Source of the DNA: an uncultured Candidatus Saccharibacteria bacterium
GTDB taxonomy: Bacteria > Patescibacteriota > UBA1384 > CAILIB01 > JAUSJZ01
Direction of reading: 5' to 3'
Length of the DNA stretch: 64,000 nt
NCBI GenBank assembly: GCA_964421635.1
Contig: CAYQWZ010000006.1
Span: forward strand, 165-64,164
Under the pieces are notes generated by a model. The model had not been told where the DNA came from. It saw nothing but the letters and a program-made list of their open reading frames with translations, and searched no databases. Shown here piece after piece: positions 1,230 to 25,204 of the stretch. The number at the start of each line of letters is the position of its first letter. The first letter of the stretch is position 1. A program made the position numbers and the translations under genes.

Positions 1230-1350
1230 CAACATAATAACGATACTAGCTAGATAATAAATTGGAGCCACCGCGCATCGAACAGATAGCACAGTTTTTT
1301 TTAATTAGCGTTTATTTGTCCCAAAGCAGCTAACGCTTTAGAATGAATAG

Positions 1351-3324: not shown

Positions 3325-3344
3325 TTCGGAGTAAGTACAAGTAA

Positions 3345-3899: not shown

Positions 3900-4047
3900 G
3901 TTCTCTATCCTCAAGGTTTTTCTTCACCCTCTCTTTGAGCTTAAGTAGATCTTTATCGTAATGGAAAGGTTGTCTCTCGCGAGCCTCACCACTAATTACA
4001 TATGGACCATACTTAATGTCTTTATTCATAATTTTATTATGACACAA
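3859..4047 (-). CDS. Small ORF upstream of PIN gene, possible antitoxin (unknown family)
   Basis: 56-62 codon ORF (ATG at 4029 or TTG at 4047) directly 5' of and overlapping the PIN gene by ~40 nt; no recognisable SD. Confidence 0.3.
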   Translation of the reverse strand: MCHNKIMNKDIKYGPYVISGEARERQPFHYDKDLLKLKERVKKNLEDREHEIERLRLQNTSA

Positions 4048-4126
4048 AAGTATATGACAAAAAGATTATCAGTATGGCGTCAGTAATCCACAGTTTGTAA
4101 TATGATCGTGCTATAGTTCTTGGGTA

Positions 4127-5128
4127 GTGAAAAAAATTATCCCAGTGGTGGCTTTTTTTCTTCCGGTAGTGGTATTTGGCTCCACCTTATTTTTAAATCA
4201 AAAAAATGAGCAATGGATGACAATCAAAGCCCAAGCTGCCGGTATTGAAGAAGAGCAACAGGTTCTAGGCGCTCAAGTGACAGATATCGCAGATAAAATT
4301 AGCTCAGTTCAAGCAGAAGTTTATTACGGTCCGGGCGAAATTTATACACTCGACGATATGCAAACAATTTTGGGCATTGAGGTTTTCGAAGAAGATATTG
4401 TGACCGCCTTTCCGAATCCTTCGTTAGGAGTAGGCTCAGAAATTAAAGTTTATCGGGCGCAGGCAGTTTTAGTAGTCGACGCAAAAGCAGAAACCGTATA
4501 TAGAAGCTGGATGCGGACTATTGGCGAAATGCTGGCCGAAAAGGGAATTGAGGTTGGCGATGATGATGAAGTGGAGCCGAATCAGGACACTGAATATTTA
4601 ACAGACAATCGGTTGACGCCTGTCAAAATAATAATTACGCGAGTTGAAGAAACAGATGTGGAAGTGCCTCAAAAAATTGAATTCGAAGTGGAGTATCAAG
4701 ATGATAGTTCAATGTTTAAAGGTGAGACGAAAGTTTTACAGGCTGGTATAGAAGGATTGCGCATAAAAACCTATCATGTACGGCGCGAGAATGGGGAAGA
4801 GGTCGCGCGCGATTTAGTTGCTAATGAGGTCACTAAAAATCCGCAAACGAAGGTAATCGCGCGCGGCACAAAAGTGAAAACTTACGGCTCTGGCAACGCC
4901 ACTTGGTACACGAAAAAGTATAGTCATGTAGCCGCCCACAACACCTTACCGCGAGGGACGAGGGTAAAAGTCATAAACAACGCAAACGGCAAATCTACAG
5001 AAGTTACCGTAGTCGGCGGCGGATTATACACTAATGCAATTATAGATTTATCATATGACGCCTTTTCTGAGATAGCAGATCCTTCGGCTGGCGTAATTTC
5101 GGTCAGACTAGAAAAAGTGTACGATTAG
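4127..5128 (+). CDS. YabE-like cell-wall protein: N-terminal TM, G5 domain, C-terminal 3D/RlpA-like double-psi beta-barrel domain
   Basis: GTG start; hydrophobic N-terminus; G5-like segment (VKIIITRVEETDVEVPQKIEFEV...); C-terminal YGSGNATWYTKKYSHVAAHNTLPRGTRVKV...VVGGGLYTNAIIDLSYDAF. Synteny with rsmA as for yabE-ksgA in Bacillus. Confidence 0.65.
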   Translation: MKKIIPVVAFFLPVVVFGSTLFLNQKNEQWMTIKAQAAGIEEEQQVLGAQVTDIADKISSVQAEVYYGPGEIYTLDDMQTILGIEVFEEDIVTAFPNPSLGVGSEIKVYRAQAVLVVDAKAETVYRSWMRTIGEMLAEKGIEVGDDDEVEPNQDTEYLTDNRLTPVKIIITRVEETDVEVPQKIEFEVEYQDDSSMFKGETKVLQAGIEGLRIKTYHVRRENGEEVARDLVANEVTKNPQTKVIARGTKVKTYGSGNATWYTKKYSHVAAHNTLPRGTRVKVINNANGKSTEVTVVGGGLYTNAIIDLSYDAFSEIADPSAGVISVRLEKVYD

Positions 5129-5131
5129 TAC

Positions 5132-5995
5132 ATGGAGCTTGAAGCTAGTTTTGTTCGAGATCTGTTATCCTCAATTAAGAAAAAGCCCACCAAAGAACTA
5201 GGGCAAAATTTTTTGTTAGACGGAGAAGTGGTCAAAAAAATGGTAGAAGTAGCCCTACCAGCTGGCGAGAAAGTGAAAAATATCATGGAGATTGGCCCCG
5301 GATTAGGAATTTTAACTAAAGAGATTATTGAATACTGGCAAGATACACCACCTAAAAAAGGGAGAGCACAAATAATAGCGGTAGAGCGTGATGCCGATTT
5401 GGCCAAAAATTTACCCCGCTGGCTAATGAAACCCAAAGAGTTAAAAATTGTCGAACAGGATGTAATAAAGTTTGATCGCGCCAAGCACTTTAAAGACGAA
5501 GATTTTATTTTAATTGCTAATTTGCCGTTTCAAGTGACAAATTTTATTTTGAGCTCAATGTTGACTCAAAAGCCGCGGCCGAAGCGCGCGGTGGTGATGA
5601 TTCAGAAAGAGGTGGCCGATAGAGTTTTAGCCAAACCTAAGGATAACGCGCGCGGTATGATGTCTGTAATTGCGGAATATTTTTGTGAACGGAAACATAT
5701 TTTACATGTGCCCAGCTCATCCTTTTACCCTGAGCCTAAAGTTGATGCGGCCGTAATTAGTTTGAAAATTCAGCGACCTCTAGACGAAAAAAGTGTCGAG
5801 CTCTTTCGGGTAGTCAAAGCCGGATTTTCGGCACGACGAAAAAATTTAAAAAACGCCCTTTCAGGTGGATTGGGAATTAAAAAGGAAGAAGCAGAAAAAA
5901 TCCTTAAAAAAGCAGAGATAAGTATTAATAGTCGAGCGCAGGAGCTGACTCTAATTCAGTGGCAAGATCTTGCTAATCAGATCGCAACCTGTTAA
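5132..5995 (+). CDS. rsmA: 16S rRNA (adenine1518/1519-N6)-dimethyltransferase RsmA/KsgA
   Basis: GQNFLLDGEVVKKMVE, IMEIGPGLGILT (SAM motif), NLPF motif. Confidence 0.9.
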   Translation: MELEASFVRDLLSSIKKKPTKELGQNFLLDGEVVKKMVEVALPAGEKVKNIMEIGPGLGILTKEIIEYWQDTPPKKGRAQIIAVERDADLAKNLPRWLMKPKELKIVEQDVIKFDRAKHFKDEDFILIANLPFQVTNFILSSMLTQKPRPKRAVVMIQKEVADRVLAKPKDNARGMMSVIAEYFCERKHILHVPSSSFYPEPKVDAAVISLKIQRPLDEKSVELFRVVKAGFSARRKNLKNALSGGLGIKKEEAEKILKKAEISINSRAQELTLIQWQDLANQIATC

Positions 5996-6031
5996 TCTTT
6001 TTGTAATCTAGGAGTTGTTAATGTTCAGTTA

Positions 6032-6709
6032 ATGAGAATATTAGTTGTTGAAGACCAGCCCGACATTAGACAGGCCCTAATCCTTACGCTAGAGAGTGAA
6101 GGGTTTCTTGTTGACTCAGCCTCTACGGCGCGTGAAGCTGTCTTTAAAGCGACGGTTAATCAGTACAGCGTAATTGTATTAGATCTTAATCTGCCAGATG
6201 GCGACGGCATGACAGTCTGCCATGAAATGCGCCAAGATAATATAGAAACTCCTGTATTAATGCTCACCATTCGTTGTGAGTTGCAAGAAATTGTTAAAGG
6301 ATTCGACACGGGAGCAGACGATTATATGACTAAACCGTATTCGCCCGGCGAACTGGTAGCGCGGCTAAAGTCATTAGCGCGGCGCGGTACCAAACAGAAA
6401 ACATCAGTATACAGAACAGACTACCTAGAGTTAAACACTCGAGCGCGTAGTCTCATTTTTTATGGCAAAGATATTGTTCTGACCCGCCGCGAGTTCGATT
6501 TACTACAGCATCTATTAGAGCGCGACGGCGATGTTGTGCATCGAGAAGATTTATGGGAGCAAGTCTGGGGCTGGGATGATTATCCGCTTCACAACACCGT
6601 CGATGTGCATATTAAAAAATTGCGAGACAAGTTGCATGATCGTCGTGGCCGCGTCATTCAAACAGTCCGCGGCGTCGGCTATCGCTTCAACACCGAACAC
6701 GCGAAATAA
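6032..6709 (+). CDS. OmpR/PhoB-family response regulator (receiver plus winged-helix)
   Basis: MRILVVEDQPDIR, DLNLPDGDG, TVRGVGYRF; no histidine kinase adjacent. Confidence 0.85.
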   Translation: MRILVVEDQPDIRQALILTLESEGFLVDSASTAREAVFKATVNQYSVIVLDLNLPDGDGMTVCHEMRQDNIETPVLMLTIRCELQEIVKGFDTGADDYMTKPYSPGELVARLKSLARRGTKQKTSVYRTDYLELNTRARSLIFYGKDIVLTRREFDLLQHLLERDGDVVHREDLWEQVWGWDDYPLHNTVDVHIKKLRDKLHDRRGRVIQTVRGVGYRFNTEHAK

Positions 6710-6725
6710 CGGGTATAATAATGGG

Positions 6726-8012
6726 GTGAGTTTATTCAAAGTTGCTCCTAAAATTCAAATTAAAAAAAAGAGAAGTCGTCATCTAAAACACCGCCGGACT
6801 TTATGGGATTTTATACGGCCGCGCAAATCTGGAGTCATTACGGGCGCGGCCGACAATGATCCTTCGGGAATTGTCACCTATACGCAAACAGGTGCGGTGG
6901 CGGGGCTCGGTCTACTTTGGACAGTTCTTTTTTCGTTGCCAATGCTAGTCGTTGTCGAAGAGATGAGCACCCGAGTCGGTATAGTCACTAAACGCGGATT
7001 AAACAAAATTATCTCTGCCAAATTTGGTTTTGCCTCAGCTGTTTTCACGGCGTTAATTGTGGCAGTTTGCAACACCTTAACCATCGGCGCAAACTTGGCT
7101 TTTATGTCCCAAATCGCCTCCATTTTCAGTGGCATTCCAGCGCAGTATTGGGTCGGGCTGTTTGGGTTAATCCTGCTATTTATATTATTAAAAAAAGGAT
7201 ACGCTATAATTTCTCGTTATCTGTTATTTATTACGCCAATATTTTTGTTATATATTATTTCGGCCTTTATGGTACCCGATATTCCTTGGGCAAATGTGGT
7301 AGTGAACACGGTTGTACCGCGGCTAAATTTATCAGATTTTTCAGTTATTATGCTGGCTTTAGGAGTTTTTGGTACTACCGTTTCGCCGTACTTAATTTTT
7401 TGGCAAACTACGGAAGAGATTGAAGAGAAAAAGAAGGTTAAGGATATTGACGAAGAATCGGCCGGCGTAGTGTCAGGAATGTTTTTTACTCAGACAGTAT
7501 TTTTCTTTATTGTTTTGGTAGCGGCGTTAGTACTGCATGGTCAAGTGGGTGAGGTTGAAACGGCTGAACAGGCTGCTTTGGCGCTAAAACCACTGGCAGG
7601 CAATATCAGCTTTTTCATCTTTAGCATTGGCATAATGGCTTCAGGATTATTAGCCGTTCCAGTTTTGACTGCATCTACTGCTTATACTGTGGCTGATACT
7701 TTTAATTGGAAAGAAGGATTAGACAAAAAACAGATTCACGCCAGTGGTTTTTACACTATTATTATTCTGGCCATGATCGCGGGTATCGGCATTGCTTTGT
7801 CTGGTTTTAGCCCCGTGATGATGCTCGTTTACTCGCAGGTATTAAATGGCGTTTTGGTACCAATCCTACTAGTATATTTAATTTTAATTGCTAATGATAA
7901 GAAAATTATGGGTCAGCACCGAAACTCTTTTTTGGCTAATTTGATCTCTTGGGTGACGGTGTTGGTTATGGGATCGCTAACTTTGTTAATGATTTGGTCG
8001 TGGTTTAAGTAA
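6726..8012 (+). CDS. mntH: Nramp-family divalent metal (Mn2+/Fe2+) transporter MntH-like
   Basis: GAADNDPSGIVTYTQTGA (Nramp DPGN-like motif) and multiple TM segments. The ORF-track start at 6531 overlaps the regulator gene in another frame; the first in-frame start after the regulator stop is GTG 6726, so the start is uncertain. Confidence 0.75.
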   Translation: MSLFKVAPKIQIKKKRSRHLKHRRTLWDFIRPRKSGVITGAADNDPSGIVTYTQTGAVAGLGLLWTVLFSLPMLVVVEEMSTRVGIVTKRGLNKIISAKFGFASAVFTALIVAVCNTLTIGANLAFMSQIASIFSGIPAQYWVGLFGLILLFILLKKGYAIISRYLLFITPIFLLYIISAFMVPDIPWANVVVNTVVPRLNLSDFSVIMLALGVFGTTVSPYLIFWQTTEEIEEKKKVKDIDEESAGVVSGMFFTQTVFFFIVLVAALVLHGQVGEVETAEQAALALKPLAGNISFFIFSIGIMASGLLAVPVLTASTAYTVADTFNWKEGLDKKQIHASGFYTIIILAMIAGIGIALSGFSPVMMLVYSQVLNGVLVPILLVYLILIANDKKIMGQHRNSFLANLISWVTVLVMGSLTLLMIWSWFK

Positions 8013-8032
8013 ATAAAAAGACAAATAAAAAA

Positions 8033-8060
8033 CCGCCGCGAGTATGAGTCACTCGCGGCG
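8033..8060. terminator. GC hairpin (ccgccgcgagt/actcgcggcg) with A-run upstream on plus, i.e. U-run downstream on minus: terminator for minus-strand GC-rich operon; may also stop mntH
   Basis: 10-11 bp perfect stem with 7-nt loop; aaataaaaaa immediately 5' on the plus strand. Confidence 0.6.
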
Positions 8061-8201
8061 ATTGTGTTGGGGCTCGGCGCTGAACACCGCTCGCAGGAAG
8101 CGAGCGATGTCCCGGCCGAGGGCGCGCCAGTCGATCTGGTGGGCGATGAGCGCCCACCAGCGGGAGAACACTGGCTCTCCCTGATTGTCTTGCTGCTTCA
8201 T
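8049..8201 (-). CDS. Unannotated 50-aa ORF (third gene of GC-rich operon), hypothetical
   Basis: ATG at 8201..8199 preceded by AGGAGG (8212..8207) that overlaps the TAG stop of the 65-aa gene. Translates to MKQQDNQGEPVFSRWWALIAHQIDWRALGRDIARFLRAVFSAEPQHNRRE; stop lies inside the terminator hairpin. Confidence 0.4.
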   Translation of the reverse strand: MKQQDNQGEPVFSRWWALIAHQIDWRALGRDIARFLRAVFSAEPQHNRRE

Positions 8202-8210
8202 CTCGACCTC

Positions 8211-8408
8211 CTAGTCGAGCTTGATGTCGCAGTTGAGACAGAAGGTGGTGCCGGTGAGGTTCACCGGCGTCTGCCCCTTGCACACCGGACATGTGGCCAT
8301 CAGCGGCTTGGGCAGCTGCATGGCCAGCTCGGCGCCGCGCGGGCGCACAATGGTGGCCGTAGCAGCGGGTGGCGTCGGCGTTTCGCGCCGCGGGGTAGCA
8401 GTCGTCAT
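8211..8408 (-). CDS. Small zinc-ribbon-like protein (65 aa), hypothetical
   Basis: CPVCKG...CLNC motif; AAGGAG SD 8 nt upstream; ATGA overlap with upstream gene; ~65% GC. Confidence 0.45.
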   Translation of the reverse strand: MTTATPRRETPTPPAATATIVRPRGAELAMQLPKPLMATCPVCKGQTPVNLTGTTFCLNCDIKLD

Positions 8409-8860
8409 GATACTGGCTCCTTCGGCCTCTCGGCCGTCAGGCGCACCTTCTGGGCGCCCTGATCACAGTGCCCACACTCGGTGAAGTCACCCGCGATCGC
8501 TTGGTCGCCGGGGTAAACATGTCCGCACTTGGGGCAGAAGAGGTCAGGAGCGTCTTCCTTGACCTCGTGGCCGCTCATCCACACCAGCTTAGGTGCGCGG
8601 AAGCAACCGGACTTGGTGCAGCGCGTGGCATGGAGCAACTCATTCAAGAAGCCGTACACCGTGTGGCAGCACGGGCAGGCCAGAACGAGCTCTTCGTCCT
8701 CAACATCAGCGATCGGCACGGTGCCGAGGGGTTCTCCTAGGCGCAGGGCCTCACGCTGAGCCTCACGAAGACAGGTTGTCCCGCGCCGCACATGCTCGGG
8801 CTCGCCGGACAGACCGCAGGTCTGACCGTTCGAGCCGCATACGCCACAGATTCGTGGCAT
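8405..8860 (-). CDS. Cys-rich multi-zinc-ribbon protein (151 aa), hypothetical
   Basis: CGVCGS...CG, CPCCH, CPKCGH...CGHC motifs; minus strand; the plus-strand ORFs overlapping here are judged to be GC-driven artefacts. Confidence 0.5.
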   Translation of the reverse strand: MPRICGVCGSNGQTCGLSGEPEHVRRGTTCLREAQREALRLGEPLGTVPIADVEDEELVLACPCCHTVYGFLNELLHATRCTKSGCFRAPKLVWMSGHEVKEDAPDLFCPKCGHVYPGDQAIAGDFTECGHCDQGAQKVRLTAERPKEPVS

Positions 8861-9028
8861 TTCAGCTCACTTTCACCCCTTAAGGGGTAACTAGGTAGAC
8901 ACCCCCGTAAAGGGGGTAGAATATGTGTACTTCAGCCTTTTTCAGGTACAAGCGCTAACCTAAACCCGTAGGCCTAAACTAGGCTTTGATAGCCAGATTA
9001 TAGCAAAAAAAGGGGTAAAAGTCAACCT

Positions 9029-9538
9029 ATGCAAGGTATTTTGCGCTATGCAAGCCAAAAGAGGAAAAATTCCCTAAAACAGGATAAAATAAAGCTAATG
9101 ACAGATTTTGTAGTTAAACCGCAACTAGATGAAAATCCTCTTGGGGAAGGGGCAAAAAAGGATTTTGCACCGGCGTCGAAACAGGTGCCCAAAATTGGTG
9201 CCAGTCAGAATCTAGATGAAATTCCAGAGCAAAAAGCGAATGAAGGAGGATTTTTGGTTAATCCGGCGGGGGTGCCCAAGGAACAAGATTCAGCCGAAAA
9301 TGCGGCCGAAAAATTTAATAAAAGAGATAAGGTACGGGTGCAATCCAGAGCTCAGGCTTATGATCCTTATTCTAGAGAGAATTTCTATATCTCTGCTCAT
9401 TCGATGGGGGTGGTGGTGCCCAGTTTAGATCCGCGAGGAGTGTTAAAAAACAATGTCACTATAATGTTGACCTCGCCAGACAACGGTAGTGGGCGAATTG
9501 TGCAAATTGAAGCAAGGCATTTAGTAAAACAGAGCTAA
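9029..9538 (+). CDS. Hypothetical protein
   Basis: 169-aa ORF with AAAGGGG SD-like upstream; no recognisable domain. Confidence 0.4.
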   Translation: MQGILRYASQKRKNSLKQDKIKLMTDFVVKPQLDENPLGEGAKKDFAPASKQVPKIGASQNLDEIPEQKANEGGFLVNPAGVPKEQDSAENAAEKFNKRDKVRVQSRAQAYDPYSRENFYISAHSMGVVVPSLDPRGVLKNNVTIMLTSPDNGSGRIVQIEARHLVKQS

Positions 9539-9815
9539 CAAACGGTTATTGAATTTAAGGATATCTTTTGTAGAAGCGCTGAAAAAAGGGCAGCAGTAAT
9601 TTACTTATTGACGAAGATTACAAAAAAATGACAAAATAGTTAGGTGTCAATAATTGCCAACAGGCAAGACACAGAAGAAGTAATAGAAGAAGATGAAGAT
9701 GATATTGAGGATGTTGATGGGGCGGCCAAGAAGAAGAAAGCCGCGTCTATTTATTGCCGGATTCGAGTTCAGGCGGTACTTCGCCACTCGTGGGCGGTAG
9801 ATTCGCGGTGCTAGG

Positions 9816-9843
9816 CGCCGGCTCGCTGAGTCGGCGTTTTTTT
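9816..9843 (+). terminator. Orphan rho-independent terminator-like hairpin plus T7 run, ~280 nt downstream of nearest plus-strand gene
   Basis: cgccggctc-gctg-agtcggcg followed by ttttttt. Confidence 0.45.
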
Positions 9844-9898
9844 AATGGCAATCATATTGACAACAGTTAATTATAACGGTTGAATGGCAGTACGGATG

Positions 9899-9922
9899 CA
9901 GATTAGTCGGCTAATCTGTTTT
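9899..9922 (+). terminator. Second hairpin plus T-run in 5' leader of gene 9991 (possible attenuator)
   Basis: cagattag-tcgg-ctaatctg then tttt; followed by a further small hairpin (ccgcc-atcg-ggcgg) just before the GAGGAG SD of 9991. Confidence 0.4.
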
Positions 9923-9990
9923 GAACCTTCCTTGCGAGTAAATTGTTTCCCGCCATCGGGCGGAGGAAATGATTTACCGAGGAGAACAAC

Positions 9991-10779
9991 ATGAGTAGAC
10001 CGAGACCGTGTACATTGGTAACCGCGATGGGCTTGGGTGCGAATTTCTTTTCTTCAATGGCTAAGCTTCTGGCACCATTTTGTGGTGATGTTCCGAGCAA
10101 TGTTGATGCTTTGCTGCGGTTTGCTTGCACGGGTGTCAGCGATGATAACGCTGAATTGCTGACAAGGTTGATGGTTATCTTGGTTGACTTTGACCCTGAG
10201 TCGAGTTGGCAAGCGATAAATCCTTGTAGAAACGAATTTTTAGTATCTAGCCATAAAGAAGCGATGGTCCGGTATGGAGAATGGCCGCGTGAAGGTGATA
10301 GGGATATACCATTTAGATTGATTTCGCTGGCTGGGAAAGGTCTTCTAATCAACATTGGACCAGATCAATATGAGCCTAGACCTGATACTGGTGAGATGAA
10401 TTACGATAGCTTGGTCAGTTCTCTTTCACTTTTTCACACAGGAATGTTTCAGTTTGCTTATCCGGTTGAAGTGTTGGGTTGTTTGATAGCAAAACTAAGA
10501 AAAGCTAAGTTTGTAGACGAAGACCCCAATGCTTGGCGACAAATGCGAACAGAGCTGCTTGCTCTGGGAGCAGTGACAGACCTTGGTCATGGGCCTCTAG
10601 TTGACACAAATCACTTTAGGCAAGCTTACGATACTGAGAGAAGGTTGGGGAGTTTTTACTTTGTTGGTATCAGGGTAGTCGATGAGTTGACTCTGCTTTG
10701 TTCTTTGCACGCCTGTGACCAACCGATAACGGAAGATCAGGTTGTGCCTCTGGTGGTAAGGGATTCTTTCTACCGTTAA
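9991..10779 (+). CDS. Hypothetical protein (Cys-containing, no known domain)
   Basis: Strong SD GAGGAG 7 nt upstream of ATG; 262 aa; GC somewhat above neighbours. Confidence 0.5.
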   Translation: MSRPRPCTLVTAMGLGANFFSSMAKLLAPFCGDVPSNVDALLRFACTGVSDDNAELLTRLMVILVDFDPESSWQAINPCRNEFLVSSHKEAMVRYGEWPREGDRDIPFRLISLAGKGLLINIGPDQYEPRPDTGEMNYDSLVSSLSLFHTGMFQFAYPVEVLGCLIAKLRKAKFVDEDPNAWRQMRTELLALGAVTDLGHGPLVDTNHFRQAYDTERRLGSFYFVGIRVVDELTLLCSLHACDQPITEDQVVPLVVRDSFYR

Positions 10780-10856
10780 TCCTTCCGTTTCGAACTTCGG
10801 CCTCGAGCACGCGCTTGGGGTTTTTTTATTTTCTGAAATTACCATAGAATGTAATT

Positions 10857-11129
10857 ATGCAAAGATTAACAGCAAAAATTTACGGTCAGGTACAAGGAGT
10901 TTTTTATCGGCGGTTTGTAACTAAGGGAGCGCGGAAACTGAATTTGACCGGCTGGGTTAAAAATACCGAAGATGGCGCGGTCGAAATAATGGCCGAAGGA
11001 ACAGAAGAGAATCTATTACTTTTTTTAGACAGTCTGCACGAAGGGTCACCCGCTTCGCAAGTTGAGCGAGTAGAAGACGAATGGCAGGCGGCCACGGGCG
11101 AGTTCCCAAACTTTCAACAGTTATGCTAG
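10857..11129 (+). CDS. acyP: Acylphosphatase
   Basis: GQVQGVFYRRFV...GWVKNTEDGAVEIMAEG, the classic acylphosphatase signature; 90 aa. Confidence 0.8.
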   Translation: MQRLTAKIYGQVQGVFYRRFVTKGARKLNLTGWVKNTEDGAVEIMAEGTEENLLLFLDSLHEGSPASQVERVEDEWQAATGEFPNFQQLC

Positions 11130-11141
11130 AGTTAAACCGGT

Positions 11142-12572
11142 ATGACCGATAAGAAAAAAGATAAATTTTATATTACCACCGCCATTCCTTATATGAATGC
11201 CCAAATCCATGTGGGTAATTCTTTGGAGTATGTACAAACCGATTGTATTGCGCGAGCGGCTCGGCTAGCTGGTCTTAAAACTTGGTTTTTGACGGGCACG
11301 GACGAGCATGGTCAAAAAATTGCCGATACCGCTAAAGCCAATAAATTAGAGCCAGCTGAATTTGTGCAGCAGAATGTCGATTACTTTCAGAAAGCACTCA
11401 AACACCTCAATATTTCTAACGACGATTTTATTCGCACGACAGATAAGAAGCGCCACTGGCCCGTAGTGAAAGCGTTTTGGAATAAACTGAAAAAAAATGG
11501 TGACATCTACGAAAAAGAGTATGAAGGATTATACTGCGTCGGATGCGAGAGTTTCATTTCTAAAAGCGAGCTAGGCTCAGACGGAAACTGCACAATCCAT
11601 AAAAAAAAACCAGAACTAGTCAAAGAGCAGAATTACTTTTTTAAACTGTCTAAATATGAAGATGAGATTTTAGACTTTTTAGAGCACCATGTTGAGCCCC
11701 GCTGGCGAGCCAACGAGATGATAAACTTTGTCAAAGAAGGATTAGAGGACATTTCATTCTCGCGGCCGAAAGAGAAATTAAGCTGGGGAATTCCGGTGCC
11801 AAACGATGACTCGCAGGTAATTTATGTTTGGTGTGATGCGCTAGTTAATTATCTATCCGCCGTTTCAACGGTGAAAGATAACGAAATTATTCCTAATGAG
11901 TACTGGCCAGCTGATATTCATGTGGTCGGCAAAGATATCGTCAAATTTCACACGCTGTACTGGCCAGCTATGCTTACTTCTGTTGGGCTGCCGTTGCCGG
12001 AAAAAGTTTTAATTCACGGATTTATCACTATTAACGGGCATAAAATTAGCAAATCTTTAGGCAATGTTATTTCACCTATGCAGGCTACGGAAAAGTTTGG
12101 AGTAGATGCGCTGCGTTACTACTTTTTGCGTGAAATTCCGACCGTCGATGACGGTGATTTTTCCTTTGACCATTTGGCGGAAATTTACAATGGTGTCTTA
12201 GCCGACAGCCTAGGTAATTTGGTGCAGCGACTTTTGGTAATGGCTAATAAATATGAAGTAAAATGGCAGTTTGCAAAGTTAGAGCCGGATGCCGAAATTT
12301 TACGCACAGTTTACAAAGAGTTAAAAATACAAAAGGCAATTGGCGCATTATTTTCCCAAATTGATAATTTGAATAAGGAAATTCAAGAGTTAGCCCCGTG
12401 GGAACTGTTCAAGACGGATGCAGAAAAAACTAGAATTGAGCTAGAATATTTGCTGTCAAAGTTAGCGGTGATAGCAGTAACCTTGGAACCGTTTATGCCA
12501 GCTACTGCAGTTGAAATTCAAAAACAGCTAGAAACTAGAGAGCCAAAACCGATCTTTAATAAAGTACAATAG
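11142..12572 (+). CDS. metG: Methionyl-tRNA synthetase
   Basis: N-terminal class I synthetase HIGH-region equivalent (ITTAIPYMNAQIHVGN), KISKSLGN (KMSKS). Confidence 0.9.
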   Translation: MTDKKKDKFYITTAIPYMNAQIHVGNSLEYVQTDCIARAARLAGLKTWFLTGTDEHGQKIADTAKANKLEPAEFVQQNVDYFQKALKHLNISNDDFIRTTDKKRHWPVVKAFWNKLKKNGDIYEKEYEGLYCVGCESFISKSELGSDGNCTIHKKKPELVKEQNYFFKLSKYEDEILDFLEHHVEPRWRANEMINFVKEGLEDISFSRPKEKLSWGIPVPNDDSQVIYVWCDALVNYLSAVSTVKDNEIIPNEYWPADIHVVGKDIVKFHTLYWPAMLTSVGLPLPEKVLIHGFITINGHKISKSLGNVISPMQATEKFGVDALRYYFLREIPTVDDGDFSFDHLAEIYNGVLADSLGNLVQRLLVMANKYEVKWQFAKLEPDAEILRTVYKELKIQKAIGALFSQIDNLNKEIQELAPWELFKTDAEKTRIELEYLLSKLAVIAVTLEPFMPATAVEIQKQLETREPKPIFNKVQ

Positions 12573-12576
12573 AATC

Positions 12577-13425
12577 ATGAATCCTTTTTTATTACAGGTC
12601 ATTGCGACCGCGTTGTTTGCGGTTGCTTTAGTTAAAGATAAAAGCAACATTTCTCGCTTCAAAATAAAACCGCGTGAGTATACCTTTATGGTCTTCTCTT
12701 ACTTGGTTGTTTTTTCAGCTGTGGTTGCTTTTTTTACGGCTGACATCCACTGGTCTTTGCTAGCCCAGCCTAAATATTATTTTGGATTTATCGCGCTGGT
12801 AGTTTTGGCTTTCGGTTGGAATAAACTTTTTTATTACTTTGAAGACCGCGAGCAGCTGCAAGATTTTGAAGTCGTTAACTTAACTGTTCCGGCTTTTACG
12901 GCGCTTCTGGGTGGAATTGTTTTTCCTGAAGAGCGTAGCTTAATTGTTTTCGTTGGTGTAATAGTATCACTTATAGCACTATATATGGCACGCGCGCATC
13001 TGCGTCAGTTTAAAATTAACAAATACACTAAAACGATGCTTTTTATGGTGGTGGTGATGGCCGCCGAGACAGTACTGAGAAAAGTTTTGTTAGATGTGTT
13101 TGATCCGGCGACGCTATATTTCTTTAGAGTTTTATTTGTTTGGTTTTTACTCTATCTGTTTTATCGGCCGTGTCGTTTACCACGAGATCTTAAAGTTTGG
13201 GGACATACTGCAATCTCTAATATTTTTGGAGTAACAGCTATGATTATTATGTTTTACGGATACATAGAAATTGGTGTGATTTTAACTACCATGGTCTTTT
13301 TATTAAATCCTATATTAGTTTACATACTTGATTCATTCGTTTTGAAAGAGAAAATTCGAATGAAAAATATTTATGCTTCATTAGTGATCTTAGCGGCTAT
13401 CACACTTGTTGCTATATTAAGTTAA
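12577..13425 (+). CDS. Integral membrane protein, hypothetical (multi-TM)
   Basis: Many hydrophobic segments; between metG and tatD. Confidence 0.45.
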   Translation: MNPFLLQVIATALFAVALVKDKSNISRFKIKPREYTFMVFSYLVVFSAVVAFFTADIHWSLLAQPKYYFGFIALVVLAFGWNKLFYYFEDREQLQDFEVVNLTVPAFTALLGGIVFPEERSLIVFVGVIVSLIALYMARAHLRQFKINKYTKTMLFMVVVMAAETVLRKVLLDVFDPATLYFFRVLFVWFLLYLFYRPCRLPRDLKVWGHTAISNIFGVTAMIIMFYGYIEIGVILTTMVFLLNPILVYILDSFVLKEKIRMKNIYASLVILAAITLVAILS

Positions 13426-20291: not shown

Positions 20292-20789
20292 ATGAATTCA
20301 AAATTACCAAATTATTTAGGTTGGCTGTTTGTGGTGCTAGCCATTGTGGCCAGTCTATTTGTAGCTAGTAAACGACTGGCCGATAAATATGTCAACTCTA
20401 AATTAGAAGATTTATCAGCTGCAATGTCTGAAGAAATCAGTCAGCTGTCTATTAGTCTAGTTGAGTTTGAATCTGGTTTATTAGATTTAAAAAACGAAGT
20501 TCGCGGGGCGGCCACTACTGTTAGTTCTGACGCGGCTGAACCAGAATCTCAACCATCTGAAAATGCAGCGCCGTCAACGAAAACGGCAGCGTCAACAGTC
20601 AGCCAAGCGGGCAAAATTAATATCAATTCGGCCAGTTTGTCTCAATTAATGACCCTGCCGGGCATTGGCCAATCTTACGCTACGAGAATTATTGAAGGCC
20701 GCCCCTATAGTTCAATTAACGATTTAACTCGAGTTAAAGGTATTGGCCCTAAAACGCTCGAAAAAATTGCTGCTCAAATTAGCATCTAG
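20292..20789 (+). CDS. comEA: ComEA-like helix-hairpin-helix DNA-binding competence protein
   Basis: N-terminal TM; C-terminal tandem HhH (LPGIGQSYATRII...VKGIGPKTLEKI). Confidence 0.75.
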   Translation: MNSKLPNYLGWLFVVLAIVASLFVASKRLADKYVNSKLEDLSAAMSEEISQLSISLVEFESGLLDLKNEVRGAATTVSSDAAEPESQPSENAAPSTKTAASTVSQAGKININSASLSQLMTLPGIGQSYATRIIEGRPYSSINDLTRVKGIGPKTLEKIAAQISI

Positions 20790-20850
20790 TAAGTCTCGGG
20801 CACTTGATTTTGGCTGTATTATCAGGTAAAGTTCTGTATAGTTGAATTAT

Positions 20851-20937
20851 GCCGGGGTGGCGAAATTGGCAGACGCGCTAGATTTAGGATCTAGTAGGAG
20901 CAATCCTGTGGAGGTTCAAGTCCTCTTCCCGGCACCA
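20851..20937 (+). tRNA. tRNA-Leu (anticodon TAG), type II with long variable arm, CCA encoded
   Basis: 7-bp acceptor stem GCCGGGG/TCCCGGC, anticodon stem ctaga/tctag, loop tttagga (anticodon UAG), T-loop TTCAAGT, 3' ACCA. Confidence 0.9.
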
Positions 20938-21014
20938 AAGAAAAATGTTCCTTGCTTTTCTGATTTGCGCGCGACCAATTTCTTCTAAAAATGAAAGGAC
21001 ATTTTTCTTTGGTG
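20933..21014. repeat. Inverted repeat (20-21 bp arms) beginning in tRNA-Leu 3' end, ~40-nt spacer
   Basis: caccaaagaaaaatgttcctt versus aaaggacatttttctttggtg; followed by a gttctgtcctct fragment resembling the tRNA T-arm (gttcaagtcctct). Confidence 0.5.
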
Positions 21015-21100
21015 TTCTGTCCTCTAAGCCTTCAATTCAAACGGTTGTCAAAATTTCCGCAGGGTTGGGAATAAGCATTGATGATTTAATTAAATAAAAA

Positions 21101-22900
21101 ATGAATTATTCGTACAACAATATGAAAACCGTGCTTAAAAAACTAAAAGACAACGATTTAGTTATTCTTGATCAACAGATATTTTCTGAGAGAGACCTTC
21201 GTACCCTTGCAAATCTTTTAAGCCTTGAGCAGCAAGAACCTATTATTATTCGTAATTTAATATCTCAATACCCCGCGCATGGTAAAAACTTTGATTGGAA
21301 CATGGGTAGCATACTTCAACATATCGAGGTTTCAATAATCATTGATGTTTTAAGTGAAAATACAAATTTACAACTTTATAATTCCATCGGACTTGTGTGG
21401 GCACTTGGAGAATTTAAGAATATGAATCGCATTATTACTGATTTCTTATATAACACTATCAAGAATTCAACGAGTTCAGATGCGTGGTGGCGCGCCGCTT
21501 TTTCTCTAGAGAAGCTTGGACTTGAGGAGGCGGTGAACTTACTTAAGATGTCTCTTAAAACAACAAAATTACGAGAACTAGATTACTATCTTCATGCGTT
21601 GAGCGACAAACGTTCTGTAATAAGTATTCTTATTTTGAGCAACGTTGAAAATATTGAGCGCGTCGTGTATCCAAAAATAAAAAAGGCGTTTCTTGAGACC
21701 CAAGATGACGCTATAATTATCAACTGCTGTTGGTTAATTGGTAGATTGAAATTAATTGATAAGGAAATTTATGAGAAGTTACTTAAATTAATTTCCCACA
21801 ACAATTACGAGTTAAAATATTACACCTTTTTTGCTCTACAGAATAACGCAACAGAATCACTACGCCCTATTCTGGAGAAATCGCTTAATGATGGTGATCC
21901 GCTGATTAGAAAAATGGCAACTCGAGGTTTAATGAGTATTGGCAATTCAGAATCACTTATGGCTTTGCATGCTGCTTTATTTAAAGAAGTTGAAGAGGCG
22001 GTGGTCTCAGAAATTAGTAACGCGATCTATAATTTAAAAAATCCTGCCAAACACTCGAAGCTTTTACTAAGAATAAAATCATATAGAAACGAGAATGGAA
22101 TGATTTCTGATGAGAGTGATAAGTGGTATCATGACCCATCGATTTATCATGTATTTTCGGAGGCTGAGGATCCAGAAAACCTATGCTTCTCGCTTGTTCA
22201 AGAACGCACAAGTGGAAAAATAATACAAAACCCAATTGATTTAGCAAGTGGAACTGGAAGAATGATATGGCAAATCATTAATAAGATGCCGTTTAATGGA
22301 ACACTGTTTGCTGTTGATGCTAGTGAACAAATGTGCGATTTTATGACAAAAACTATAAAAAGGGAAAGAAAATTTACTAGTGATATACAGATTGTTCAAC
22401 AACCAATTATCGATGCGCCAAGTTCTATACAAGTAAAATCCTCATTTATTATTAGTTCATTTGGGTTTCCGAGCAGGATTACTAATGCAAGCCTGTGTTT
22501 TGCTGAATTGAACGCGGTATATAACTTACTTACAGATAATGGATTATTTTTAACTATTGGGTGGGATGAAACATTCAATGATGAGCTTAATCATATGTGG
22601 TATAAATTTATACCCGACAATATTGCTGCTCAAAATTTTGAAGAATGGCGACATAAACGATCTATAACAATTCAAAGCCCACGAAATTGTGGTTTAACAT
22701 GGCTTAAGAAAGGTATCTCTGTTCCATTGCAATTTGAATCACAAAAAGAAGCAGCATTTGTTATAGGGTATTTATTTGGCCGTGACGCAGCTCAATATGT
22801 TATGAATACTGGAAAAACAGAATGGAACATGTCGCTCGGGATTACATGCAACACAAAAGAAGAATTAAAAGCGATCATTAAATCATATGAAGGAAATTGA
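21101..22900 (+). CDS. HEAT-repeat (PBS-lyase type) protein fused to class I SAM-dependent methyltransferase domain
   Basis: N-terminal HEAT-like repeats (WALGEF..., DPLIRKMATRGLMSIGNSESLMAL); C-terminal IDLASGTGRM (motif I), AVDASEQM, FIISSFGF. ~33% GC by eye. Confidence 0.55.
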   Translation: MNYSYNNMKTVLKKLKDNDLVILDQQIFSERDLRTLANLLSLEQQEPIIIRNLISQYPAHGKNFDWNMGSILQHIEVSIIIDVLSENTNLQLYNSIGLVWALGEFKNMNRIITDFLYNTIKNSTSSDAWWRAAFSLEKLGLEEAVNLLKMSLKTTKLRELDYYLHALSDKRSVISILILSNVENIERVVYPKIKKAFLETQDDAIIINCCWLIGRLKLIDKEIYEKLLKLISHNNYELKYYTFFALQNNATESLRPILEKSLNDGDPLIRKMATRGLMSIGNSESLMALHAALFKEVEEAVVSEISNAIYNLKNPAKHSKLLLRIKSYRNENGMISDESDKWYHDPSIYHVFSEAEDPENLCFSLVQERTSGKIIQNPIDLASGTGRMIWQIINKMPFNGTLFAVDASEQMCDFMTKTIKRERKFTSDIQIVQQPIIDAPSSIQVKSSFIISSFGFPSRITNASLCFAELNAVYNLLTDNGLFLTIGWDETFNDELNHMWYKFIPDNIAAQNFEEWRHKRSITIQSPRNCGLTWLKKGISVPLQFESQKEAAFVIGYLFGRDAAQYVMNTGKTEWNMSLGITCNTKEELKAIIKSYEGN

Positions 22901-23558
22901 AATTTTAATTGAGGTTAAGAGTACGAAACAAATTGCTATCAATGCATTAAAGCAATTTACATGTCACGGTATTAAGCATACGCTAGATATTTATTTTTTT
23001 GATCCATTAAGACAAGATCTGCAGCCAGAAGTTAATGGACGACTGAGGAGATCATTTCGTCTGCGGAAAAAAGATACAGAGTGTTCTATTGCATACAAAA
23101 TTGATCATTTTAAGCAGGGTGGCGATAAATGGCTTTACTCTGATGAACATGAGGTTTCTGTTCATAATTTTGATATCATGCTTTCCATACTGAGACACCT
23201 TGGCCTTCAAGAGCTTGTTGTGGTAGACAATGAAAAGCATGTTTTTACAACACCAGAATATGAAGTAGTGCTAGAAAATGTTAAAAACTTCGGCTTATTT
23301 TTAGAGGTTGAGCAACTTTCTCAAGTTCCTGATGACAAAATTATTGACGCAAAAAAGAAGATTAAAAAATTTCTTAGTAGTTTAAATATTAAATTTGGTA
23401 ATGAACTCAATTCTGGCAAGCCAGAACTTATTTTAAAGAAACAAACAAATCTTTTCTCAATTGAATCCCGCCCGAATTTTGCCAAAAGAAAAAAGCGGAG
23501 GATTTCTCCCCAAACCCCTCCTCCTCCGCTTGCGACATCCAAATTCAAAAAAGATTAG
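22887..23558 (+). CDS. CYTH-domain protein (CyaB/thiamine-triphosphatase-like triphosphate tunnel enzyme) with basic C-terminal tail
   Basis: MKEIEILIEVK N-terminus, LDIYFFDP, RLRRSFRLRKKD, AYKIDHF and LFLEVEQ motifs matching CYTH family conservation; overlaps upstream gene by 14 nt. Confidence 0.6.
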   Translation: MKEIEILIEVKSTKQIAINALKQFTCHGIKHTLDIYFFDPLRQDLQPEVNGRLRRSFRLRKKDTECSIAYKIDHFKQGGDKWLYSDEHEVSVHNFDIMLSILRHLGLQELVVVDNEKHVFTTPEYEVVLENVKNFGLFLEVEQLSQVPDDKIIDAKKKIKKFLSSLNIKFGNELNSGKPELILKKQTNLFSIESRPNFAKRKKRRISPQTPPPPLATSKFKKD

Positions 23559-23565
23559 CCAATTA

Positions 23566-23606
23566 TTTTGCGAAAATCCAATCCCAAAAAAATAGTTTTC
23601 GCAAAA
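23566..23606. repeat. Inverted repeat ttttgcgaaaa / ttttcgcaaaa (11-bp perfect arms, 19-nt spacer)
   Basis: Read directly from the sequence in the 3' region of the CYTH gene. Confidence 0.5.
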
Positions 23607-23679
23607 CCGAGTCCGCATTAGTCCCGCCACCTACTCGAATACTTGGAGGGCAGAACACCAAAAAACAATTAAACATACA

Positions 23680-23705
23680 GCCTGCCTGCCTGCAGGCAGG
23701 CAGGC
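23680..23705. repeat. 26-nt perfect palindrome (GCCT)3G|C(AGGC)3 centred on CTGCAG
   Basis: gcctgcctgcctgcaggcaggcaggc is self-complementary over all 26 nt. Confidence 0.7.
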
Positions 23706-23741
23706 GAGCAAGTAGCTAATTTTTGACGATTAGTAGTGTGA

Positions 23742-23763
23742 AGTCCCATTCGGGACTTTTTTA
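23742..23763 (+). terminator. Rho-independent terminator (gtccc-attc-gggac plus T6)
   Basis: Hairpin followed by ttttttatt; ends the CYTH operon and abuts the stop of the minus-strand gene. Confidence 0.6.
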
Positions 23764-24246
23764 TTAAAGTTTGGTCTTGAGAAACTTAGTAAATCTCTTC
23801 ATCTCTTTCTGATAAGCCGGCAATATTTTCTTTTGTTTTTCTTTTGATAGAGCCTGTATTGCTGTCAAACCAGCGCTATGCAATCTAATGCTGTAACCCA
23901 TTTCAGATAAAATAAGGATTAATTTATAATCTGGCTTATCCTTCTGATAAAATTCAGCTAACAAATTATGAAGTTTATTTGCTAAAGTCGAAATCTGTTT
24001 CTCTACTTTTTGTCGGTTCTTTTTTACTTTATACCAGCTTTTATTCTCTGGAAGTTTGGGGGTTATCTCTACCCAAGGTGCCACTAAGCTCTAGCCGATA
24101 TGGCCTTCGCAAGATTGTGTGGTGGGGAAACCCAGAGAGTTTAAATAAAGCACGGTATCAAAAATACCCGATTCTATTGGTACGCCTAATTTATCGGTAG
24201 TTTCGAGTAATTGTTTTTTGGCTTTAGCTAAATCTTTTTTATTCAT
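23764..24246 (-). pseudogene. Hypothetical gene interrupted by an in-frame TAG (at 24093..24091); N-terminal 51 codons and C-terminal 106 codons share one frame
   Basis: Minus-strand translation from ATG 24246 gives MNKKDLAKAKKQLLETTDKLGVPIESGIFDTVLYLNSLGFPTTQSCEGHIG-TAG-SLVAPWVEITPKL...; the ORF-track 106-aa ORF (GTG at 24084) is the same frame downstream of the stop. Confidence 0.4.
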
Positions 24247-24331
24247 ATATCCATTATCTCATATATGCATAATTCAGTTCGAGGGGCTTTTTGTTGCCAC
24301 CAGATAAAGGATTTGGTAGAGTCAGCGCAGT

Positions 24332-25204
24332 GTGAAAAAACCGAAAATAATTGTTGTTTTAGGCCCGACGGCGAGTGGAAAGACTTCACTGGGAGCTTTT
24401 TTGGGAAAAAAATTAAAGGGTGAAATTATTTCAGCCGACTCGCGGCAGGTTTACAGACGGCTTGATTTAGGCACGGGAAAAGAAAAATTAGAAATCCCCC
24501 AGCATTTAATAGATATAGTTCAGCCAGAACAGCGTTTTACCGTGGCAGAGTGGAAAAAACTAGCAGACAAGAGTATTGCCGAGCTGTTGCAGCGAGGCGT
24601 TATCCCTGTAATTGTGGGTGGCACAAGCTTGTATATAGAGGCGCTACTGAAAAATTATCAGTTTGGGTCGCAAAATTTAAAGCTGCGATCAGAGCTAGAA
24701 AAAATGAGTCTTAAGGATTTACAGAAAAAATTAAAACAAATTAATCCTCAATTAGAAAAAGAGATTGAGAGTAATAACAAGCGCTACATAATTCGGGCGA
24801 TTGAGAAAAACGAAAGTGAGAATGGGGTTGTAGTGAGTAATCCTTTATATGACTATATTTTGCTGACCCCCAAAATTTCGCGCCAAAAGTTGTACCAGCA
24901 AATTGATAAGCGAGTTGACGACAGAATGGATGAGGGAATGCTAAAAGAGGTAAAAGATTTAGTCAAGACTGGAATTTCTAAAGATTGGCTAATGTCACTA
25001 GGGCTTGAGTATAGATATCTGACTAAACTTGTCATGGGAGAGCTTTCGCGCGAAGAAGCGATTTCAAAATTGAAGTTTGATACTCATAGTTTTGCGCGCA
25101 AACAGCTAGCTTGGTGGCGACGCGGAAACTGGCCACAAGAAATAAAAATTATTGATTCTAAAAAACAAGCGCTAAGCTTAGCGCAGAAGTTCTTAAAAGA
25201 TTAG
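24332..25204 (+). CDS. miaA: tRNA dimethylallyltransferase MiaA
   Basis: P-loop GPTASGKTSLG, ISADSRQVYRRLDLGTGK. Confidence 0.85.
   Translation: MKKPKIIVVLGPTASGKTSLGAFLGKKLKGEIISADSRQVYRRLDLGTGKEKLEIPQHLIDIVQPEQRFTVAEWKKLADKSIAELLQRGVIPVIVGGTSLYIEALLKNYQFGSQNLKLRSELEKMSLKDLQKKLKQINPQLEKEIESNNKRYIIRAIEKNESENGVVVSNPLYDYILLTPKISRQKLYQQIDKRVDDRMDEGMLKEVKDLVKTGISKDWLMSLGLEYRYLTKLVMGELSREEAISKLKFDTHSFARKQLAWWRRGNWPQEIKIIDSKKQALSLAQKFLKD

Follow-up and report, generated by a model that had tools for sequence, protein, structure and literature searches.

What do two overlapping genes, one for a HEAT-repeat methyltransferase and one for a CYTH-domain protein, accomplish between a tRNA gene and miaA in a bacterium of the Patescibacteria? 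The question is raised by 64,000 nucleotides (nt) of contig CAYQWZ010000006.1 (assembly GCA_964421635.1, positions 165 to 64,164) from an uncultured Candidatus Saccharibacteria bacterium; this whole stretch is hereafter called the window. The original prediction, made from the letters of the sequence, had singled out the gene pair as a combination it did not recognise, and had considered a signalling or defence-type function possible. Here, I show that the HEAT-methyltransferase and CYTH genes form a strongly conserved two-gene unit characterised by a one-way dependence: the methyltransferase is always accompanied by a hydrolase of nucleoside triphosphates (NTPs) or triphosphate, and the CYTH protein can function alone. 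As to what the unit does, the reading preferred here, tentatively and with slightly less than even confidence, is that of a nucleotide-directed methyltransferase coupled to an NTP/triphosphate hydrolase. The argument starts from what is observed, namely the anatomy of the two genes, their conservation and coupling as a pair, the hydrolase-type signature of the second product and the pattern of neighbouring genes. The main features, in window coordinates, are these:

20851-20937, plus strand: tRNA-Leu(TAG), called by ARAGORN (Rfam tRNA, 52.9 bits), left anchor of a variable segment

21101-22900, plus strand: ORF A, 599 amino acids (aa), a HEAT/ARM-type solenoid (residues ~1-330), a conserved linker and a class I S-adenosylmethionine (SAM) methyltransferase (residues ~360-599)

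22887-23558, plus strand: ORF B, 223 aa, a CYTH/triphosphate-tunnel enzyme, predicted to be of the hydrolase type, with a basic tail (residues ~190-223)

24332-25204, plus strand: miaA (Pfam IPPT, 4.5e-55), right anchor of the variable segment

The four genes, as well as the 14-nt overlap between ORF A and ORF B, lie where the original prediction had placed them (ARAGORN, Rfam and ORF calls), and Pfam and AlphaFold2 (AF2) models agree with its domain assignments. In ORF A, Pfam recognises HEAT_2 at residues 225-299 (9e-12, 45.6 bits against a cut-off of 27.7) and Methyltransf_31 at residues 379-489, the latter with 27.0 bits, which is the cut-off exactly. The AF2 model (predicted local distance difference test, pLDDT, 91.7; predicted template-modelling score 0.86) depicts residues 1-330 as an all-helical solenoid, followed at ~360-599 by a complete Rossmann methyltransferase with strand-helix alternation and helical insertions after strands 5 and 6; because the Rossmann domain spans this whole region, an apparent 'C-terminal domain' belongs to the methyltransferase fold. 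The translation contains the motifs IDLASGTG, AVDASEQM and FIISSFGF, and D380, G384, G386 and D406, that is, the glycine-rich motif I and the acidic residue after strand 2, are invariant in the family.

Searched against the PDB with Foldseek, ORF A finds only generic small-molecule or natural-product methyltransferases (CFA synthase, SgvM, DnrK, CouO, YcgJ, Tmt1, ToxA), at 10-14% identity and E-values near 1e-5, and no DNA, rRNA or protein methyltransferase resembles it in that search. With UbiE/COQ5, Tmt1, CouO, YcgJ and ToxA it has in common the Rossmann fold, motif I (IDLASGTG), D406 and the lid insertions after strands 5 and 6, but it differs from them by the low identity just given and by invariant motifs of its own, NENGxIxDExDKWY, SSFGFPS and GWDETFNDELN. 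Assignment to a well-known housekeeping family, which the original prediction had named as a result that would speak against it, does not hold: the NCBIfam models for UbiE/MenG score 22.4 against a cut-off of 216 and 17.2 against 158 bits. A phycobilin lyase (CpcE/CpeY) identity fails likewise (NCBIfam ~12 bits against cut-offs of 330-600), the likeness to PBS-lyase/CpcE-type proteins being confined to the level of the repeat (Pfam HEAT_2 and HEAT_PBS repeats, all-helical solenoid).

Clustered at 90%, the full-length homologues of ORF A number at least 180, and among 1.84 billion protein clusters only 65 representatives, fragments included, reach E <= 1e-30. Among the best 150 matches, down to E ~1e-13, no methyltransferase outside the family appears, the others being generic HEAT-repeat proteins; judged by sequence, the family is sharply bounded. 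Mean column identity in the family alignment (A1) is 54% and stays high along the full length, solenoid included, the HEAT arm being 42-46% identical across phyla. Variants occur at the N-terminus: several full-length homologues carry an XRE-type helix-turn-helix (HTH) domain (HTH_3), a few have other N-termini, and HEAT-less forms of 256-274 aa consist of the methyltransferase only (loci L033-35 and L041). In one further locus (L028, 7805-10570) an ORF of 921 aa combines an RNB exoribonuclease domain with no more than the C-terminal half of the methyltransferase (residues 414-597) and is followed by a CYTH gene; the SAM-binding half is absent, and the ORF, considered as a clue to an RNA substrate, is probably a decayed or chimeric gene.

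ORF B matches Pfam CYTH (8e-10, 39.2 bits against a cut-off of 23.2), and its AF2 model (pLDDT 90; nine DSSP strands and a C-terminal helix) has the eight-stranded beta-barrel tunnel fold. Its best Foldseek match is the archaeal triphosphatase SaTTM, with a template-modelling score (TM) of 0.83-0.84, E = 1e-11 to 1e-12 and a root-mean-square deviation of 2.9 A, as against TM 0.65-0.68 for class IV cyclases. SaTTM (Saci_0718) and other archaeal triphosphate tunnel metalloenzymes (TTMs; PH1819, PH1012, Pfu-838710) are also the best PDB matches by sequence (E = 8e-5). Both ORF B and SaTTM are small single-domain proteins, and ORF B keeps the RxR basic patch, the beta-8 ExE pair and the C-terminal plug helix of the SaTTM type; it differs in its 20-22% identity, in starting two residues before the first Glu, in being bacterial or phage-borne rather than archaeal, and in having a methyltransferase as partner, that of SaTTM being a SAM hydrolase and NMNAT. 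Invariant in the ORF B family are E3, E5, L7, R58, R60, K71, E87, E89, E140 and E142, together with a C-terminal GKPE motif. The N-terminal motif reads ExExL, with E3 and E5 invariant and the Lys position occupied by an invariant Leu in 30 of 30 sequences, another difference from SaTTM; in the HMMER alignment of the two the strand register at the N-terminal ExExK is ambiguous.

Is this protein a cyclase or a hydrolase? Public records label it 'class IV adenylate cyclase', and with the class IV cyclases (CyaB, YpAC-IV) it does have superfamily and fold in common. According to Vogt et al. 2021 (PMC8233210), true class IV cyclases are told by three sequence markers: an HF motif stands four residues ahead of ExExK, a small residue replaces the first Arg of xRxR, and the second Glu of the beta-8 ExE has become Ala. 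ORF B bears none of the three. The paired CYTH proteins examined start M1-K2-E3, which leaves no room for HF (the exception, P0236, has an N-terminal extension), and both Arg of RxR (R58, R60) and both Glu of beta-8 (E140, E142), which the same paper associates with hydrolases, are invariant; the score against the cyclase model TIGR00318 is 57.4 bits, below the cut-off of 57.95. Thiamine triphosphatase was considered too and set aside, the aromatic residue of W/YxRxR being replaced by Ser56 (Ser, Ala or Cys in homologues). Because the cyclase markers are absent, R58 and E142 are invariant and SaTTM is the best structural match, I conclude from sequence and model that ORF B is predicted to be a hydrolase-type tunnel enzyme and not a cyclase, and that the public label is probably wrong. 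The same label is attached to hundreds of CYTH proteins in uncultured bacteria, for which it is probably wrong as well, and this matters for claims of cAMP signalling in Patescibacteria.

The label has a further bearing, since a CYTH enzyme making a cyclic or other signal nucleotide, sensed or executed upon by the HEAT-methyltransferase, would amount to a signalling or anti-phage defence system of the kind that the original prediction had in mind. Such a system appears very improbable. The public annotation and the near-threshold cyaB score speak for it, to which may be added the XRE HTH domain at the N-terminus of some ORF A homologues. Against it stand the absence of all three cyclase markers, the structural match to SaTTM and the conservation across phyla of the HEAT arm, which is unlike a diversifying sensor; the gene neighbourhoods, to which I return below, also bear on it.

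The basic tail noted in the original prediction is real: about 35 residues long (~190-223, positions 23455-23558), proline-rich, modelled with low confidence and identical in four independent contigs. All homologues, which are 184-198 aa long, lack it; it appears to have been added in this lineage by reading on past the ancestral stop. Near the pair, five loci have a second and divergent CYTH-like gene (L036, 3145-3864; L008, 2699-3265; L016, 12407-13060; L024, 13665-14237; L115, 13204-13725), and some of these copies have a canonical-looking ExExK.

The case for a functional unit rests on conservation. A profile search with ORF A over one genome per GTDB species gave 35 loci, in 31 of which a CYTH gene directly follows on the same strand. 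The same arrangement is found in L036, in L112-L115, in the phage contig L041 and in the window, so that the co-occurrence check proposed in the original prediction came out positive in 38 of 42 methyltransferase loci. These 42 loci span Patescibacteria, metagenome-assembled genomes (MAGs) of gut Bacilli type and of Alphaproteobacteria type, an integrase-bearing element and one phage contig; it should be borne in mind that the neighbourhood sample as a whole is small (~48 loci) and partly redundant phylogenetically. An overlap of 4-26 nt joins the two genes in 26 of 37 loci, and in the rest they stand no more than 17 nt apart.

The four exceptions among the 35 are a contig end (L022), a frameshifted pseudogene (L030), a rearranged copy (L031) and L026, which lies in Ca. 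Accumulibacter phosphatis (NC_013194, 9989-14250). There, the ORF A homologue, interrupted by an insertion sequence (IS) with a DDE transposase, is followed, by way of an ATGA overlap, by MazG and then by an AAA_28 kinase-like P-loop protein, with no CYTH gene at this site; MazG, an NTP pyrophosphohydrolase not homologous to CYTH, takes the CYTH position in a non-orthologous displacement.

The dependence is not mutual. Six CYTH proteins 52-62% identical to ORF B were looked up and all six occur without a methyltransferase: in the order rpoC-dnaG-rpoD-CYTH, as CYTH-HAD, as CYTH-NUDIX, as CYTH followed by a 2H phosphoesterase and an HD protein, and in two other contexts. In a neighbour-joining tree the lone copies nest among paired ones in two places. 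Independent occurrence in core context, which the original prediction had listed as a finding that would count against the pair, is thus true of the CYTH gene and does not extend to the methyltransferase, which always has its hydrolase partner. A methyltransferase downstream of a lone CYTH gene in L116 was considered as a possible relative and proved unrelated to ORF A.

Could the two genes be mere neighbours, packed together in a compact genome? Patescibacterial genomes are gene-dense and rich in overlaps, and the lone CYTH copies would fit, but the chance of there being no functional link is practically negligible: the adjacency persists in 38 of 42 loci across several phyla while the other flanks vary, the HEAT-less minimal form keeps its CYTH gene (L033-L035, L041), and the sole locus with an intact partner gene other than CYTH, L026, has another NTP hydrolase in its place.

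What kind of link, then, is indicated by the company the pair keeps? Flanks are otherwise not conserved, and even the closest relative (L036, 84% identity) adjoins tig-clpP rather than tRNA-Leu and miaA. In a census of two genes on each side of the pair (141 proteins), the commonest specific families were nucleoside diphosphate kinase (NDK, four loci), serine recombinase with DUF2924 (three), NUDIX (two) and IstB (two). NDK directly adjoins the pair in L004, L006, L112 and L115, upstream in one and downstream in three of them. In L006, where NDK lies downstream, a DUF4406 gene (294-758) precedes ORF A, and in L009 (1533-2528) DUF4406, a member of the N-deoxyribosyltransferase-like clan, forms the C-terminal part of a fusion with CYTH. 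A NUDIX gene is present in L024 and a P-loop kinase gene in L014.

The phage contig L041 (IMGVR_UViG_3300031673_000093, 341-9144) is the single match in 2.9 million viral contigs. It carries a minimal pair, a HEAT-less methyltransferase and a shortened CYTH, amid genes for ParB, a Cas4-type exonuclease, dCTP deaminase, a RapZ-C domain, RusA, DUF1599 ('nucleotide modification associated domain 1'), an FkbM methyltransferase and thymidylate synthase.

From these neighbourhoods derives the preferred reading, that of a nucleotide-directed enzyme pair. The cargo of the segment would be a translationally coupled two-gene operon whose second product, ORF B, would cleave a triphosphate-bearing substrate, most likely a nucleoside triphosphate, and whose first product, ORF A, would be a dedicated SAM-dependent methyltransferase of the small-molecule type, its HEAT solenoid probably serving as a docking arm. 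Both enzymes would act in sequence on the same nucleotide, the triphosphate being shortened before methylation, and NDK or P-loop kinases may re-phosphorylate the methylated product. The pair would accordingly be a module of nucleotide-pool processing or modification rather than of signalling or defence. This reading is proposed because NDK, NUDIX, P-loop kinases and the CYTH-DUF4406 fusion are found among the neighbours, because the phage pair sits in a nucleotide-modification block and, as the strongest single argument, because an NTP pyrophosphohydrolase of unrelated ancestry occupies the CYTH position in L026. The lone CYTH copies next to NUDIX, HAD or a 2H phosphoesterase with HD are further evidence for it, as are the tightness of the pairing, the hydrolase-type signature of ORF B, the likeness of ORF A to small-molecule methyltransferases and the variability of the slot.

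In known phage nucleotide-modification pipelines, such as MazZ/DatZ-PurZ and dCTPase-dCMP hydroxymethylase, a base-modifying enzyme and kinases go together with an NTP pyrophosphatase. The present pair resembles them in that a putative (d)NTP hydrolase stands beside a modifying enzyme, with NDK or kinases nearby, in the block of L041 and in the ability of MazG to replace CYTH. It differs in that the modifying enzyme is a SAM-dependent class I methyltransferase, and not a thymidylate-synthase-like or PurA-like enzyme, in its mostly cellular distribution and in the HEAT arm of most copies. A bolder version, which I regard as rather unlikely, posits a hitherto unknown pathway in which ORF B (or MazG) trims an NTP, ORF A methylates its base, sugar or phosphate, and NDK or P-loop kinases rebuild a methylated NTP, the product being used in modified nucleic acid, a use suggested by the phage contig, or as an antimetabolite or chain terminator in conflicts among ultra-small symbionts, their hosts and phages.

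Several points weigh against the nucleotide-directed pair. The displacement by MazG is a single locus, whose methyltransferase gene is moreover IS-broken, and NDK adjacency is confined to 4 of ~42 loci, two of them in related lineages. SaTTM, the closest characterised CYTH relative, prefers inorganic triphosphate (PPPi) over NTPs. The ExExL motif may signal atypical catalytic behaviour in the ORF B family. The large conserved HEAT arm suggests a macromolecular partner, which an enzyme of free nucleotides would not obviously need, and the occurrence of CYTH without methyltransferase in many genomes could mean that the link is looser than a shared pathway. Lastly, the evidence on function is contextual throughout, so that what the enzymes act on, in which order they act, what the HEAT arm does and whether the two proteins form a complex are inferred.

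The substrate preference of SaTTM leads to a different proposal, according to which ORF B would destroy PPPi, a by-product and inhibitor of SAM synthesis, and ORF A would act on an unrelated small molecule or protein. Besides that preference, the conserved operon of SaTTM with a SAM-handling enzyme, a SAM hydrolase, and NMNAT (bioRxiv 10.1101/2025.08.29.672840) would suit this PPPi housekeeping, as would the frequency with which CYTH stands alone, in a housekeeping-like manner, in Patescibacteria. It would leave the strict one-way dependence and the conserved overlap unexplained, and it gives no reason why NDK, kinases and DUF4406 should be linked to the pair or why the phage copy should lie in a nucleotide-modification setting. 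MazG is not a PPPi hydrolase, so that its substitution in L026 also disagrees with this proposal, and I consider it improbable.

The conserved solenoid raises yet another proposal, since it would fit a conserved macromolecular target: ORF B would remove phosphates from 5'-triphosphate RNA and a HEAT-guided ORF A would methylate RNA, as part of RNA-end or tRNA processing. The TTM fold is common to RNA triphosphatases, the capping enzymes of the Cet1 type (PMC8233210). Within 1 kb upstream of the pair, on the same strand, tRNA genes lie in the window and in L002 (9498-9569), L005 (9227-9300), L010 (9146-9418) and L011 (9882-9958), and in L020 one (12448-12524) lies just downstream. Lone CYTH genes occur in rpoC-dnaG-rpoD-CYTH and beside a 2H phosphoesterase, and the ORF A profile weakly matches the HEAT domain of epoxyqueuosine reductase and Hen1 (E = 0.09-0.26). 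None of this makes RNA a probable substrate. The tRNAs of the five other loci are of differing identity (Gln, Leu, Val, Arg, Met, besides Leu in the window), and their enrichment is weak, ~1.7 being expected from local tRNA density. The best structural matches of ORF B are small TTMs of the SaTTM type, Cet1 being outside the top 50 Foldseek matches, and ORF A matches no RNA-methyltransferase family in Pfam, NCBIfam or Foldseek; the RNB fusion of L028, lacking the SAM-binding half, looks like decay. NDK, NUDIX, DUF4406 and the kinases are enzymes of free nucleotides, and MazG, the CYTH substitute, acts on free NTPs and not on RNA ends.

The neighbourhoods also return the argument to defence, whose patchy, accessory type of distribution and mobile settings the pair in part displays. 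Outside Patescibacteria it is often on or near mobile DNA: in L114 (1654-10808) within an element that also encodes a tyrosine integrase together with HU-HIG and VapE-like proteins; in L019, L023 and L032 (~8080-12860), from gut 'Alphaproteobacteria' MAGs, between a large serine recombinase and a DUF2924 gene; and in L025 near IstB. DUF3800, YgjP and one type IIG restriction-modification enzyme are among the neighbours. In Patescibacteria, by contrast, the pair lies amid ribosomal, chaperone and division genes, and CYTH alone occurs in core operons. PADLOC-DB 2.0 gave one weak match to the HEAT repeats of ORF A (6.8e-5) and none to ORF B, and over the 141 flanking proteins its matches were sporadic or generic, with no enrichment; the suggestion of a signalling or defence function made in the original prediction has therefore not been borne out. 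The readings weighed here together leave a small part of the probability unassigned.

Neither PADLOC, PHROGs, Pfam nor NCBIfam has a name for the pair, PHROGs holds no family for ORF A or ORF B, and tblastn against cultured plasmids and phages gave no match. Literature searches on the pairing, on CYTH in defence and on TTM with NDK found nothing that describes it. The impression that the pairing was unfamiliar was thus well founded: the HEAT-methyltransferase and CYTH pair appears to be undescribed, both domains being drawn from known superfamilies. By their obligate coupling the two enzymes mark out a family with sharp bounds, which is found in Patescibacteria, in MAGs labelled gut Bacilli or Alphaproteobacteria, on mobile elements and on one phage. 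Moreover, CYTH enzymes are still without a clear physiological role, and a conserved partner together with the substitution by MazG offers a testable handle on it. Should ORF A indeed act on free nucleotides, a new route to modified nucleotides would be at hand, in organisms of the patescibacterial type that depend on nucleotide salvage.

How the pair came to lie beside tRNA-Leu(TAG) is best seen by comparison with a syntenic metagenomic relative (L042), with which the window has in common the gene order p169-recG-comEA-tRNA-Leu(tag) ... miaA-ftsE-ftsX (identity of RecG 73%, FtsE 92%, FtsX 85%); its part recG-comEA-tRNA-Leu recurs in more distant genomes (L054-56, L088). DNA similarity between the window and L042 breaks off exactly where the tRNA ends (20937) and restarts at 24331. 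In the relative, the 2.3 kb between tRNA-Leu(tag) and miaA (9250-11575) are unrelated in DNA to the window segment, and no relative of ORF A or ORF B is found among their ORFs. Because the relative keeps the same flanks with different cargo, the 3.4-kb segment 20938-24331 is a variable slot, and the comparison of presence and absence at the tRNA-Leu site that had been suggested at the outset finds the pair absent from this relative. The slot was probably acquired horizontally. In L042 the cargo includes a minus-strand gene for a predicted membrane protein of 230 aa as well as an ORF of 135 aa, both without a Pfam family.

The composition of the segment fits the original prediction in direction and not in degree: GC content is 0.347 in the gene pair and 0.354 in the segment, as against 0.407 in the remainder of the window, a drop that is real but modest. 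The pair falls within the lowest 3.4% of windows of equal size along the 64 kb without being the minimum. Of 32 loci compared, 26 have a pair poorer in GC than its flanks, with a mean difference of 4.3 points and a largest one of 14.7. The minimum of the window (0.32) lies near 53-55 kb, at 53173-56130, just after a prolyl-tRNA synthetase-like gene; it encodes a protein of 324 aa that combines a CxxxCxxC motif of the radical-SAM type with a C-terminus rich in Cys, and two unannotated ORFs follow. The ORFs of 20938-24331 include no integrase gene, as had been remarked, and no recombinase gene. A scan of 20700-24400 with Rfam at permissive E-values returned only the tRNA and no riboswitch or other non-coding RNA.

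The segment holds a number of repeats, hairpins and small genes besides the pair:

20933-21014, plus strand: long imperfect hairpin in which the tRNA 3' end and trailer (20933-20959) pair with 20988-21014 (27 nt, 85% complementary)

20945-21097, plus strand: 50-codon ORF whose C-terminal half, SSKPSIQTVVKISAGLGISIDDLIK, resembles the last helices of an XRE-type HTH

21001-21033, no strand: left arm of a 33-nt inverted repeat, complementary to 23637-23669 at 27 of 33 positions

23566-23576 (TTTTGCGAAAA) and 23596-23606 (TTTTCGCAAAA), no strand: 11-bp perfect inverted repeat with a 19-nt spacer, read directly from the sequence

23637-23669, no strand: right arm of the 33-nt inverted repeat, pairing with 21001-21033, so that the arms bracket exactly ORF A and ORF B

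23680-23705, no strand: 26-nt perfect palindrome GCCTGCCTGCCTGCAGGCAGGCAGGC, its core unique in the window

23740-23766, plus strand: terminator-like hairpin (23740-23759) and T-run, between the convergent ORF B and a minus-strand gene

23764-24246, minus strand: broken orphan gene of 160 codons, split by an in-frame TAG (24091-24093) into ORFs of 51 and 106 aa

The 11-bp inverted repeat, the palindrome and the terminator are thus present at the end of the island, as had been described. The 21-nt core of the 33-nt repeat occurs in exactly two copies in the 64 kb as against 0.01 expected, and the repeat could mark the inserted unit. The outer 14 nt of its right arm (CACCAAAAAACAAT, 23656-69) match the tRNA 3' end and trailer (CACCAAAGAAAAAT, 20933-20946) at 12 of 14 positions; as a check for a direct repeat of the att type, this is a match of 12/14 only, covering 5 nt of the tRNA plus the trailer. 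The idea that such repeats flank the module in general was rejected: none of the 32 other loci has a flanking repeat comparable to it, the window alone exceeding the shuffle null, and the motif is absent from all non-identical loci. Because it is absent around the other loci, the repeat is specific to this insertion and not to the module.

The stem of the long hairpin reappears in the RNA fold, the region overall not being significant (z = -0.9), and the relative L042 likewise has a hairpin directly after its tRNA. The 50-codon ORF aligns with positions 34-55 of the 55 of Pfam HTH_3 (E = 0.012, under the cut-off) and is, on this likeness, probably the remnant of an XRE-type HTH; given the N-terminal HTH_3 of some ORF A homologues, it may be what is left of a regulator. 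The broken minus-strand gene belongs to a family without a Pfam entry, for which 10 homologues were found and which is recognised by the motif SCEGH...PWVE. An intact copy of 160 aa (P0393), 99% identical to the broken gene, has Gln at the position of the stop.

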